This document shows, one piece after another, positions 3,447 to 43,519 of a stretch of 64,000 nt of DNA (within the stretch, counting starts at the first letter, position 1; each line of letters starts with the position of its first letter). Where the stretch lies: assembly GCF_988242995.1 (NCBI RefSeq), contig NZ_OZ547043.1. One strand, given 5' to 3'. The translations under genes and the position numbers were made by a program. The notes beneath the pieces are model-generated. The model saw only the letters and a list, made by a program, of their open reading frames with translations, ran no database searches and was not told the DNA's origin.

Positions 3447-4934
3447 TTATTCCGACACAACTGGCTTTTTTTCACACTTTTGCGACTCGGATCGAGGGTA
3501 TTTCCATAGCCAACGTCCAGTAACCATTCGCCAGTAAAACAGCACGGCCCGCACAGCCCAGTCGGCAAACATTCCCATCCAGACACCAACCACACCCCAG
3601 CCAAGCATGATTCCCAGCACATAACCGACTACAACCCGACAACCCCACATGCTCAACATCGAAACCCACATGGCGTAACGGGCATCACGAGCACCTTTAA
3701 ATCCAGCGGGTAGCACCCATGAGGCGGACCAAATAGGCATAAATAAAGCATTTAGCCAAATCAGAATCACAACGACATGTTTAACCTGTGGATCCTGGGT
3801 GTAAAACGATGCCATAAGCCCGGCAAAGGGAGCCGTTAGCCAGGCGATGGCCGTTAATCCAAGAGTGGACAGCCAGAACACATGCCGCAACTGAATCTCT
3901 GCTTGCGCTATCTGCCCTACCCCCAACCTTCGGCCTGTAATGATCGTAGAAGCAGAGCCGAGCGCACTTCCGGGTAAGTTGATAAGAGCCGCAATTGAAA
4001 ACGCGATAAAATTTCCGGCAATAACACTGGTCCCCATTCCGGCAACGAACATTTGGGTTAATAACCGACCACTGGTAAATAACACTGATTCGACACTCGC
4101 TGGAATACCAATCCCCATGACTTCCCAGATAATGCTAAAATTCAGCGGTTTAAAATAGCTCTTTAACGAAATCCTTAGCGCAGGATTAAAACCTATCGCC
4201 AGCACCCACAAAATTGCAACTGCGCCAATATAACGAGAAATGGTTAAACCCAACCCAGCCCCGACAAATCCCAGTCCCGGCCAGGAGAAAAGGCCGTAAA
4301 TCAATATGCCGCTAATAATAATATTAAGAATATTCAGGCTACCGTTAATCAGTAGCGGTATTTTCGTATTCCCTGCACCACGAAGTGCCCCACTACCAAT
4401 CAAAGTGATGGCAGCTGCTGGATAACTGAGTACCGTCAGCTCCAGATAAGTCAACGCCAGTGCTTTAACTTCTGTCGTGGCATCACCCGCGACGAAATCA
4501 ATAATTTGTTCGCCAAAATGATGAATAAGCGTTGCCAACAGTACGGCAAACAACGTCATGATCACCAATGACTGCCGCGTCGCCACCCTCGCTCGTCGTC
4601 GATCCCGCTTACCGAGACTAAATGCCACAACGACAGTGGTACCAAGATCGATAGCAGCAAAAAAAGCCATAATGACCATATTGAAGCTGTCCGCCAATCC
4701 CACGCCGGCCATCGCATCTTTTCCCAGCCAGCTGACCAGAAAAGTGCTCAGGACACCCATCAACAGGACACAGGCATTCTCCATGAAGATAGGAACAGCA
4801 AGCGGGGTTATCTCGCGCCAGAACAACACTTTGTAGCTCTTGCGTTTAGCGTGCCAGCGAGTGCCGTGAACAACCTGGCGTAAAGCAGAGGAGATATTCA
4901 AAGCCGACCTTAATTGCAGAAAGTGAAACCACAT
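3447..4934 (-). CDS. yeeO: MATE-family efflux transporter (FMN/FAD exporter YeeO)
   Basis: ORF 3447..5087; start chosen at internal Met (MWFHFLQLRS...) giving about 495 aa; multi-pass membrane protein. Confidence 0.8.
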   Translation of the reverse strand: MWFHFLQLRSALNISSALRQVVHGTRWHAKRKSYKVLFWREITPLAVPIFMENACVLLMGVLSTFLVSWLGKDAMAGVGLADSFNMVIMAFFAAIDLGTTVVVAFSLGKRDRRRARVATRQSLVIMTLFAVLLATLIHHFGEQIIDFVAGDATTEVKALALTYLELTVLSYPAAAITLIGSGALRGAGNTKIPLLINGSLNILNIIISGILIYGLFSWPGLGFVGAGLGLTISRYIGAVAILWVLAIGFNPALRISLKSYFKPLNFSIIWEVMGIGIPASVESVLFTSGRLLTQMFVAGMGTSVIAGNFIAFSIAALINLPGSALGSASTIITGRRLGVGQIAQAEIQLRHVFWLSTLGLTAIAWLTAPFAGLMASFYTQDPQVKHVVVILIWLNALFMPIWSASWVLPAGFKGARDARYAMWVSMLSMWGCRVVVGYVLGIMLGWGVVGVWMGMFADWAVRAVLFYWRMVTGRWLWKYPRSESQKCEKKPVVSE

Positions 4935-5094
4935 TTCAAATAATGAGGGAGAATCAGCAAAGCTGCAAAGATTTTCGCCAACAAATTGTCTGCAAATGCA
5001 ACAAACTGTTGATAGAAACGGCAAACAGTTGGGGAATTTAAAAATCGGGTTTGACAAAAGATTTTTCGCCGTTAAGATGTGCCTCAACAGCGAT

Positions 5095-39825: not shown

Positions 39826-40236
39826 ATGAAAACTTTTATCAAAACTTTACTCGTTGCTGTAACTATTCTGTTCTCTGTCTTCGCTACTGCGAAACAAGTA
39901 AAACTGCCAAATAACATCAAATACGTTAATACTACAGAAGCGTTTTCCTGTACCGAAATTGACGGTATGAATTGCCAGACAAAGAATCAGTTCAACTATA
40001 AAGATAACAGCTATGTTTTCGTGCTTGAACGTGGTGGTGCCTGGTGCTACGACTACACTGTCTCGGTAGTTAACCTGAAAACCGGGAAAGCACAAATGAT
40101 TGAATACGGGGACAATCAACTGTGCTCAGGTAGCAACAAACCGTTCTTCGAAATCAAAAATGGCGTACCGACGGTAGGAGTCATCGACACATCCGGAAAA
40201 CCTGTCGTTGTAGCCCAGGACAAACTTAAAATCTAA
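39826..40236 (+). CDS. secreted hypothetical protein (signal peptide, four Cys)
   Basis: 136 aa; strong RBS TAAGGAG; N-terminal MKTFIKTLLVAVTILFSVFATA signal peptide. Confidence 0.6.
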   Translation: MKTFIKTLLVAVTILFSVFATAKQVKLPNNIKYVNTTEAFSCTEIDGMNCQTKNQFNYKDNSYVFVLERGGAWCYDYTVSVVNLKTGKAQMIEYGDNQLCSGSNKPFFEIKNGVPTVGVIDTSGKPVVVAQDKLKI

Positions 40237-40379
40237 GGAGTAAACCATGCGTTTCTCTGCACATTATTAATATCAAAGGTAAATACAGCCCCAGCCATTG
40301 TTACCGGAAAGCCGCTTAATGCGTGGCTCGCCAGTGAAAGGCCTCTCAGACAATAAACCTTATTCATTTCACCCGTCAG

Positions 40380-40411
40380 GCCGCGTCTTCTCCGGGAGAC
40401 GCGGCTTTTTT
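40380..40411 (+). terminator. rho-independent terminator
   Basis: gccgcgtct ... agacgcggc hairpin followed by TTTTTT. Confidence 0.7.
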
Positions 40412-40456
40412 CATTTATTGCACCAGTAAATCTTAACCACCGATAAGGAGCAAAGT

Positions 40457-41278
40457 ATGCGATTAGCCAGTCGTTTTGGTTATGCTGCAAACCAGATACG
40501 CCGTGACCGTCCGCTGACACATGAAGAACTGATACGCCATGTACCCAGTATTTTTGGGGAAGACCGGCACACCTCCCGCAGTGAACGGTATGCGTACATT
40601 CCCACCATTACCGTCCTGGAAAATCTGCAGCGGGAAGGCTTTCAGCCGTTCTTCGCCTGCCAGACCCGTGTGCGCGACCCGGGCCGCCGGGGATACACAA
40701 AACACATGCTGCGTCTGCGGCGGGCCGGAGAGATAAACGGAGAACATGTCCCTGAAATTATTCTGCTCAACTCTCATGACGGTACCTCCAGCTACCAGAT
40801 GCTGCCGGGTTACTTCAGGTTCGTCTGCCAGAACGGGTGCGTCTGTGGCCAGTCTCTGGGGGAAGTGCGTGTTCCACACCGGGGAAATGTAGTGGAGAAA
40901 GTTATCGAAGGGGCTTACGAGGTGGTGGGCGTGTTTGACCGGATAGAGGAGAAGCGTGATGCCATGCAGTCGCTGGTCCTGCCGCCACCGGCACGCCAGG
41001 CGCTGGCACAGGCGGCACTGACTTACCGTTATGGTGACGAACATCAGCCCGTCACCACCGCCGACATTCTGACGCCGCGACGCCGGGAGGATTACGGTAA
41101 GGACCTGTGGAGCGCATATCAGACCATCCAGGAGAATATGCTGAAAGGCGGGATTTCCGGTCGCAGTGCAAAAGGAAAACGTATCCATACCCGGGCCATT
41201 CACAGCATTGATACCGACATTAAGCTCAATCGCGCATTGTGGGTGATGGCAGAAACGATGCTGGAGAGCCTGCGCTGA
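40457..41278 (+). CDS. DUF932-family prophage protein (YfjQ/YafZ-like)
   Basis: 273 aa; RBS AAGGAG; family typical of CP4-type islands downstream of the GTPase/cargo region (recognition from memory). Confidence 0.65.
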   Translation: MRLASRFGYAANQIRRDRPLTHEELIRHVPSIFGEDRHTSRSERYAYIPTITVLENLQREGFQPFFACQTRVRDPGRRGYTKHMLRLRRAGEINGEHVPEIILLNSHDGTSSYQMLPGYFRFVCQNGCVCGQSLGEVRVPHRGNVVEKVIEGAYEVVGVFDRIEEKRDAMQSLVLPPPARQALAQAALTYRYGDEHQPVTTADILTPRRREDYGKDLWSAYQTIQENMLKGGISGRSAKGKRIHTRAIHSIDTDIKLNRALWVMAETMLESLR

Positions 41279-43145: not shown

Positions 43146-43519
43146 ATGAAAACATTACCTGTATTACCCGGGCAGGCGGCCAGTTCTCGCCCGTCTCCTG
43201 TTGAAATCTGGCAGATACTGCTGTCCCGACTGCTGGACCAGCACTATGGCCTCACACTGAATGACACACCTTTTGCCGATGAACGTGTGATTGAGCAGCA
43301 TATTGAGGCAGGCATTTCACTGTGTGATGCGGTGAACTTTCTCGTGGAAAAATACGCGCTGATGCTACCGACCAGCCGGGATTCAGCGCCTGTACCCGCT
43401 CTCAGTTAATAAACAGCATCGATATCCTCCGGGCTCGCAGGGCGACCGGCCTGATGACCCGCGACAATTACAGAACGGTAAATAACATTACCCTGGGTAA
43501 GTATCCGGAGGCGAAATGA
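43146..43519 (+). pseudogene. cbtA: CbtA (YeeV) toxin gene with frameshift
   Basis: N-terminal 73 aa typical of CbtA, then frame shifts ([19 protein letters not shown] stop); the expected C-terminus NSIDILRARRATGLMTRDNYRTVNNITLGKYPEAK is encoded in another frame ending at 43519. Confidence 0.7.

Follow-up and report, generated by a model that had tools for sequence, protein, structure and literature searches.

The known bacterial lysozyme inhibitors are mostly β-sheet proteins, in which a loop between antiparallel strands enters the active site of the enzyme (PMC7677548). MliC/PliC, PliG, and PliI are small, β-rich periplasmic proteins of this type, and Ivy (PF08816), which is also small, periplasmic, and disulfide-containing, inhibits lytic transglycosylases as well (PMC3660660, PMC10139938). 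On the phage side, Spackle of phage T4 is a small, Sec-exported, disulfide-bonded periplasmic protein that blocks the gp5 tail lysozyme of incoming phages; it is an α-helical bundle of 75 residues with one disulfide (PMC7677548). In this study, we analyzed a gene for a secreted four-cysteine protein (39826..40236, + strand) that lies directly downstream of an Ivy-like gene in a 64,000-nucleotide stretch of contig NZ_OZ547043.1 (NCBI RefSeq assembly GCF_988242995.1), hereafter referred to as the window.

Profile comparisons indicate that the protein belongs to a narrow, undescribed family, the core members of which are the tandem secreted paralogs gp181, gp182, and gp183 of SPN3US-like jumbo phages. 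The phage genes occupy the same cassette slot, upstream of two small genes and an SbcC-like gene. The window protein is only 37% identical to SPN3US gp182, and its gene lies on a chromosomal island whereas gp182 belongs to a phage; no protein of this group has been characterized. Judging from gene remnants at its borders, the island pair, i.e., the Ivy-like gene and the gp182-like gene, is derived from the jumbo-phage cassette, and the direction of transfer was from phage to island. We propose, with a probability of roughly 35%, that the four-cysteine protein is a periplasmic binder or inhibitor that acts alongside Ivy on peptidoglycan-cleaving enzymes, for example in superinfection exclusion.

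Features and family of the four-cysteine gene

The gene starts with ATG, codes for 136 residues, and is preceded by the Shine-Dalgarno sequence TAAGGAG (39813..39819, + strand; 6 nt 5' of the ATG); the stop codon TAA of the preceding open reading frame (ORF) at 39808-39810 leaves a gap of exactly 15 nt. The N-terminus of the product, MKTFIK-TLLVAVTILFSVF-ATA followed by KQ, contains two Lys residues, a 13-residue hydrophobic core, and an A-x-A site, as read by eye, and the predicted Sec signal peptide (22 residues, 39826..39891, + strand) would be cleaved after A-T-A. An intrinsic terminator with a 13-bp stem, 8 G-C pairs, a 4-nt loop, and a T-rich tail ends the cassette at 40378..40417 (+ strand), its stem lying at 40378..40407 and being followed by TTTTTCATTT. 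A first-pass annotation, made from the letters of the window, had described the 136-residue ORF, the strong ribosome-binding site (RBS), the signal peptide, the 15-nt distance to the Ivy-like gene, and a strong terminator, placed at 40380..40411, and we recovered all of these features. Its suggestion that the gene is co-transcribed with the upstream gene is likewise borne out by the short gap, the gene's own Shine-Dalgarno sequence, the lack of a terminator between the two genes, and the strong terminator after them. No sigma-70 consensus promoter was found for the cassette, and an Rfam scan of 38900-40600 returned no RNA family.

The mature part of the protein contains all four cysteines, C42, C50, C74, and C100. 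Across 27 family members, C74 and C100 do not vary, and C42 shows at least 90% conservation; C50 is conserved but shifted by two residues in register in the distant subfamily. The signal peptide and the four cysteines are retained down to 24% identity, and an equivalent signal peptide is kept in all homologs despite their diverging sequences. The Sec pathway thus very probably delivers the protein to the periplasm, where the first-pass annotation had also placed it.

The window is nearly identical to the corresponding region of the extraintestinal pathogenic E. coli (ExPEC) strain S88 (NC_011742.1); over 17.5 kb, the two sequences differ at two positions, neither of them within the four-cysteine gene, whose S88 counterpart at the same position is WP_000846713.1, a "hypothetical protein". 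The gene was detected by blastn in 2365 of 5426 complete E. coli genomes (~44%), with at least 80% of its length in 2289; the carriers include O157:H7, ST131, and S88, and the label is always "hypothetical protein". The alleles of other islands and of the phage diverge by 17–31% at the DNA level with zero indels, and their pairwise dN/dS is 0.17–0.32. Because of these dN/dS values and this prevalence, we regard the ORF as a real gene. About 44% of complete E. coli genomes therefore carry a gene of an uncurated family that has no solved structural relative.

The first-pass annotation had recognized no family. This holds for Pfam, NCBIfam, and PADLOC, in which the only matches to the protein were noise below threshold (SH3b_T, 13.7 bits; DUF6520, 11.9 bits; JUQZ_fam_ocin, 15 bits), but not for PHROG 8968 (function unknown), which matches the protein end to end (E = 2.6e-45, profile positions 1–133 of 135). 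When 1.84 billion representative proteins were searched exhaustively with HMMER, only 30 hits were obtained, four of which were full-length distant relatives with 24–34% identity; a profile search recovered relatives of these four in Salmonella, Serratia, Proteus, and E. coli. A tblastn search of 50,697 phage records gave 40 matches, all in ~240-kb jumbo phages of Salmonella, Erwinia, Escherichia, or Proteus: SPN3US and its relatives, phiEaH2, Asesino-type phages, pEa_SNUABM_29, Proteus phage 7, vB_EcoM_Lh1B, and EC001.

The SPN3US ortholog is SPN3US_0182 (gp182), which also has 136 residues. The adjacent gp181 (163 residues) and gp183 (127 residues) are secreted four-cysteine proteins as well, and gp180 is a secreted two-cysteine protein. 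The family hidden Markov model (HMM) detected gp182, gp183, and gp181 of SPN3US at E-values of 4e-41, 8e-12, and 2e-7, respectively; over SPN3US, phiEaH2, and pEa_SNUABM_29 together, the values were 1e-40 to 1e-44 for gp182, ~1e-12 for gp183, and 2e-7 to 3e-11 for gp181. Each of these proteins consists of a signal peptide and ~110 mature residues with four cysteines in register. The window protein has the same properties, namely a profile match over its whole length, the signal peptide and cysteine register, and the position within the cassette. A text search of two SPN3US papers (PMC5105663, PMC5694885) found no mention of gp180–gp183, and no literature was found on the accessions of the window protein or on these SPN3US proteins.

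The jumbo-phage cassette and its capture by islands

In SPN3US, the block gp180–gp183 is followed by two small genes and then by the essential SbcC-like gene gp186 (PMC5105663). The four genes are likewise present in phiEaH2 and pEa_SNUABM_29, and in SPN3US-like phages a protein with an SLT domain is encoded ~6 kb downstream of the cassette. The closest non-island allele to the window gene (allele P0014 in our numbering; protein 76% identical) is carried by contigs of 221–225 kb (loci L023–L025 and L039) and by a 222-kb Enterobacter ludwigii replicon (L031). Three of these ~222-kb replicons (L023, L031, and L039) are collinear with the region from gp17x to gp186 of SPN3US over nine ORFs of 30–58% identity, and their SbcC-like protein is 58–69% identical to those of cultured jumbo phages. 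Genes for a prohead protease (S80) and a DNA polymerase (family B) are also present on the P0014 replicons, which are listed in IMG/VR as viral genomes. On account of this collinearity, the SbcC-like identity, the two phage-type enzymes, and the IMG/VR listing, we identify them as SPN3US-like jumbo phages. The E. ludwigii replicon (NZ_CP134650.1, "plasmid unnamed1", 222,441 bp; L031/L035) has been deposited and typed as a non-mobilizable plasmid but is actually a phage genome of this kind; near-identical contigs of 221–225 kb are present in other samples.

The block of the L023 lineage consists, in order, of a YfjT-like gene, a gp180-like gene, an Ivy-like gene (160 residues), the four-cysteine gene (136 residues), and a gp183-like gene, and its Ivy-like and four-cysteine genes are separated by 15 nt, the same distance as in the window. 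The arrangement gp180-like, gp181 or Ivy-like, gp182-like, and gp183-like is collinear in L023, in a second phage locus (L008), and in SPN3US, phiEaH2, and pEa_SNUABM_29. In the L023 phage, the Ivy-like gene fills the slot held by gp181 in the cultured phages; gp181 has been replaced non-orthologously at the same slot. As a further observation, the cassette encodes, in addition to gp180, a secreted protein of the YfjT family (PF27224, named after a gene of the K-12 prophage CP4-57); these genes lie at 4608-5069 and 5098-5484 of L023 and at 4099-4500 of L030, and several periplasmic proteins are therefore common to CP4-type islands and jumbo phages.

Remnants of the phage genes persist at both junctions of the island pair. 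An alignment of the window with the L023 locus and two other islands at the DNA level revealed that, after the four-cysteine stop codon, the islands continue with TAAGGAGTAAACC-ATG-CGT-TTC-(A)TC-TGC, a match to the RBS and initial codons of the gp183-like gene of the phage. The window copy of this start remnant spans 40234..40270 (+ strand) and comprises TAAGGAG, an ATG at 40247, and seven codons (MRFSAHY, then a stop), as compared with MRLICALL... of the gp183-like paralog. The stub at 40234-40270 is conserved in other islands. At the opposite junction, island 8 of E. coli MP1 retains, before the Ivy-like start, the 3' end of a phage gp180-like gene (...FFHNAELIGRITLNRSAE, then a stop). These remnants show that the islands carry a fragment of the jumbo-phage block, a point that the first-pass annotation had missed. 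The Ivy-like gene is absent from all deposited phage genomes; the L023 lineage must therefore have acquired it, presumably from a bacterial source, before the fragment reached the islands.

Within CP4-type islands of Enterobacteriaceae, the pair occupies a variable cargo slot, downstream of an operon for dynamin-like, RdcB-like, and patatin proteins and upstream of a DUF932-antirestriction-RadC-CbeA/CbtA module.

Linkage to the Ivy-like gene and candidate functions

The upstream gene deserves its name. When the profile of the Ivy-like family was compared with 177,635 distinct chain sequences of the Protein Data Bank (PDB), it matched only the four distinct Ivy sequences (E = 0.004–0.016), over the strand-loop-strand that bears CKPHDC, and 15 of the 17 family members match Pfam Ivy (best E = 6.4e-11; 15 bits for the window member). 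By these matches, the gene, which the first-pass annotation had called Ivy-like, is a true but divergent member of the Ivy family. Its inhibitory loop varies among alleles (CKAHTC, CKANTC, CKSNAC, CKANAC, and CKAHAC; CE..NC in the 312-residue proteins described below).

HMM searches across all fetched loci, which represent seven locus types, placed an Ivy-like gene next to the four-cysteine gene in five types (S88/O157, L028, L026, the L023 phage, and the Salmonella/E. coli type) and in all six IMG/VR loci. In the Salmonella/E. coli type, the order is reversed, and a gene for a 312-residue protein follows the four-cysteine gene after ~65 nt. The four-cysteine proteins of these loci are 32–33% identical to the window protein, and the N-terminal half of the 312-residue protein is homologous to the Ivy-like protein of the window (32% identity over the Ivy-like domain, BLASTP 1e-26). 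Its C-terminal half aligns with the gp183 profile with all four cysteines in register (hhalign P = 2e-4, probability 44%) and with the gp182 profile with three cysteines in register (P = 1e-3); the profile–profile P values range from 2e-4 to 1e-2. The 312-residue proteins are thus probably fusions of an Ivy-like domain and a domain of the four-cysteine family. Because the linkage recurs in these locus types and IMG/VR loci, in reversed order, and in a probable fusion, it is not a local accident.

Secreted proteins of ~312 residues (L005 8476-9414; L012–L019; P0088–P0157), whose Ivy-like domain has the CE..NC loop without His, occupy the CP4-type island slot, and some of them bear the NCBI name "Ivy family c-type lysozyme inhibitor". 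The Erwinia persicina member P0151 has an extra N-terminal cytoplasmic GYF_2 domain and would be a transmembrane protein.

An initial AlphaFold model of the four-cysteine protein was weak. A second model, made for the mature protein from a 17-sequence alignment, reached a pLDDT of 84.4 and a pTM of 0.81 and predicted seven strands arranged as two antiparallel meanders, which suggests a small all-β protein stabilized by predicted disulfides. The most conserved motifs, GGxxC(Y/G)D and CSG, would sit in inter-strand loops, the kind of element that MliC/PliC, PliG, and PliI insert into the active site. A comparison of the confident model with solved structures gave no close match and only partial matches to two β-propeller blades, in GH43 and GH130 glycoside hydrolases, the CV39L lectin, and the two-blade lectin RSL of Ralstonia solanacearum (TM-score 0.36–0.45); a search of PDB sequences with the family profile gave nothing relevant.

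Several known families can be set aside. The protein is not Ivy itself: it has no Ivy match at E ≤ 1 and lacks a CKPHDC-type loop, whereas the upstream gene has both. Nor does it belong to MliC/PliC, PliG, or PliI, which the first-pass annotation had named as families to be searched, as there is neither a profile match nor a fold in common with the solved inhibitors. Homology to T4 Spackle is excluded in the same way, because the model is all-β with four cysteines, in contrast to the α-helical bundle, and no PDB sequence matches. Finally, neither the four-cysteine protein nor the Ivy-like protein matches any profile of the known anti-phage defense proteins in PADLOC-DB 2.0. Overall, the first-pass interpretation is partly supported: the location and the Ivy linkage hold, the suggested role as an enzyme inhibitor or immunity-like protein is putative, and the known inhibitor families are excluded.

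In the mechanism that we favor, the mature protein would reach the periplasm through the Sec pathway and serve there as a protein-binding module beside the Ivy-type inhibitor, directed at the same problem, i.e., enzymes that cut peptidoglycan. Rigid, disulfide-stapled loops between β-hairpins would bind and block such an enzyme, most likely a lysozyme or lytic transglycosylase associated with the tail of an incoming phage, in the manner of Spackle. In a lytic phage, this activity would block the tail enzyme of later-arriving phages or restrain wall cleavage until lysis; in an island, the same activity would be phage-exclusion cargo for the host. A more far-reaching and more doubtful proposal is that gp181–gp183 form a new structural class of periplasmic inhibitors of peptidoglycan-cleaving enzymes, which jumbo phages would have evolved to exclude superinfecting phages or to control lysis and which CP4-type islands would have domesticated together with a fast-evolving Ivy variant; nearly half of E. 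coli strains would then carry a periplasmic phage-exclusion module derived from a jumbo phage.

A number of observations weigh against the favored mechanism. The putative link of the four-cysteine protein to an enzyme is drawn from gene context. All cultured jumbo phages have the family without an Ivy-like gene, and no adjacent Ivy-like gene is present in the L008 phage type or in the L003 type, in which a gene for a GYF_2 membrane protein precedes; conversely, island 8 of MP1 has the Ivy-like gene without the four-cysteine gene. The window itself combines an intact four-cysteine gene with a truncated Ivy-like partner, and joint action is therefore not obligatory. The homology of the C-terminal half of the 312-residue proteins is also weak by other measures, with hhalign probabilities of 3–44%, hmmsearch at noise level in both directions, and weak sequence-versus-profile matches. 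Lastly, the patatin stop codon is followed immediately by a terminator-like hairpin (39011-39027; 7 bp, 5 G-C pairs, T-run), which stands between this gene and the cassette, and no consensus promoter was found for the cassette; the hairpin may isolate the cassette from the upstream operon or do no more than attenuate transcription.

Other explanations were considered for the same data. The propeller-blade matches and the tandem paralogs in phages would fit a lectin-like periplasmic or surface protein, in which two four-stranded meanders assemble, as in RSL, into a pseudo-propeller that binds glycans of peptidoglycan or lipopolysaccharide and masks receptors or shields the wall. The predicted meanders do superpose on two propeller blades, such as those of RSL, but the scores are weak and there is no sequence repeat between the halves of the protein, and we consider this reading unlikely. 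An inhibitor of animal lysozymes, i.e., a colonization or virulence factor covering a lysozyme class other than that of the Ivy-like partner, would agree with the adjoining Ivy-family gene, with a periplasmic, β-rich protein similar in these respects to known inhibitors (PMC7677548), and with the frequency of the gene in ExPEC, O157, and ST131 genomes. However, defense against vertebrate lysozyme is implausible for the core members, whose carriers are strictly lytic jumbo phages, some of them infecting the plant pathogen Erwinia amylovora, and there is no similarity in sequence or fold to MliC/PliC/PliG/PliI; this reading is improbable. We assign a similarly low likelihood to a role as an orphan immunity protein in the periplasm, carried by mobile elements for protection from an interbacterial toxin (e.g., a colicin, a contact-dependent inhibition toxin, or an amidase or muramidase of a type VI secretion system). 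Small secreted proteins in tandem paralog arrays on mobile elements, with fast allele turnover between conserved flanks, are consistent with such a role, but no cognate toxin gene lies nearby in any locus, no immunity or defense profile matches, and lytic phages would be unusual carriers of such genes.

Two further alternatives concern the island rather than the protein. The gene has the same orientation as the dynamin-like/RdcB-like/patatin candidate defense operon and lies directly downstream of it, the genes of proteins P0046 and P0023 also follow dynamin-YjcZ-patatin, and the cluster of MP1 that is co-induced includes two downstream genes for secreted proteins (PMC12922286), as would be the case for a periplasmic sensor or regulator of the operon. 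Against this role, which we consider the least likely of the readings, jumbo phages and Salmonella/E. coli islands have the family and the Ivy pair but lack the operon, the operon occurs without the four-cysteine gene in MP1 island 8, and O157 retains the pair though its dynamin gene is truncated. The gene could instead be a functionless passenger, i.e., a fragment of phage DNA in a decaying island that contains remnants of flanking genes, a nonsense-mutated Ivy-like gene, a frameshifted cbtA, and many insertion sequence (IS) elements. The low dN/dS among island alleles, the retention of at least 80% of the ORF length in 2289 of the 2365 carrier genomes, and the maintenance of several diverged alleles at the same site all argue against this, and the chance that it is correct seems slim.

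If the pair does block peptidoglycan hydrolases of phage or host, the family would represent a new inhibitor fold and a second example of periplasmic superinfection exclusion after Spackle, and the variable cargo slot of CP4-type islands would gain a concrete function. If the inhibitor reading is false, the family is still a well-delimited orphan family. The periplasmic side of jumbo-phage biology appears to be unexplored, because the words superinfection, periplasm, and secreted are all absent from the text of a 2026 review on jumbo phages.

The Ivy-like gene of the window, allele exchange, and the neighboring operon

The Ivy-like gene proper (39325..39810, + strand; 161 codons, inhibitory-loop motif CKAHTC) begins at 39325, as in the phage and MP1, and is interrupted in the window by an in-frame TGA at 39613..39615 (+ strand), which is TGG (Trp) in S88, so that the protein ends after 96 residues. 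This G-to-A change, which had escaped the first-pass annotation, is one of just two positions that differ from S88; of the complete E. coli genomes in the collection, none has this change and none matches that stretch at 100%. As read here, the gene is a nonsense pseudogene, and its product would be truncated unless the stop is read through. The base after the TGA is C, and UGA followed by C is a leaky stop context. Upstream, at 39127..39321 (+ strand), lies the 5' remnant of a gene for a 180-residue secreted protein, which comprises the signal peptide and ~45 residues and is in frame with the Ivy-like ORF; the full-length protein is intact in E. coli MP1 (SID94_RS19705). The 227-residue protein of S88 (WP_001514307.1; WP_000775497.1 in O157), which RefSeq annotates as a single protein, is thus a chimera of this remnant (residues 1–66) and the Ivy-like gene proper.

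The two cassette genes differ from their surroundings in divergence. Between the window and L028, dS was 0.46 for the four-cysteine gene and 0.99 for the Ivy-like gene, versus 0.17 for both flanking genes. Because the dS of the pair exceeds that of the flanks, the cassette is judged to have been swapped by recombination between conserved flanks, each allele being under purifying selection. Between the window and O157, identity was 99.8% for the four-cysteine gene, 95.7% for the Ivy-like gene, and 92.9% for the patatin gene. The dN/dS of the neighbors was 0.17–0.28 for patatin and 0.10–0.20 for DUF932. Positive selection, considered since allele P0005 looked mosaic, was rejected, as pairwise dN/dS was below 0.35 throughout. 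This allelic hot-spot pattern suggests genes at a conflict interface, for which it would be expected.

The operon upstream of the cassette (34626-38991) codes for a dynamin-like GTPase (798 residues), an RdcB/YjcZ-like protein (301 residues), and a patatin-like phospholipase (356 residues), with overlapping stop and start codons. Against PADLOC-DB 2.0, it gave only weak matches, of the dynamin-like protein to LeoBC (E = 2.7e-5) and of patatin to phospholipase effector models (E = 1e-4). The pair is found with and without this operon, and the operon is also found without the four-cysteine gene. O157:H7 has a truncated dynamin gene. In Kapi1 lysogens, the cluster with the strongest up-regulation is a homologous five-gene cluster of E. 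coli MP1 (PMC12922286), which we mapped to the genes for dynamin, RdcB, patatin, the 180-residue secreted protein, and the Ivy-like protein. Its position would make the four-cysteine gene of the window the final one on the same transcript.

The other position at which the window departs from S88 is 43336 (A vs. G), within cbtA (~43146-43519), which carries a frameshift annotation in S88 and O157. This type IV toxin gene of the island thus looks inactivated, while the antitoxin gene cbeA is intact.

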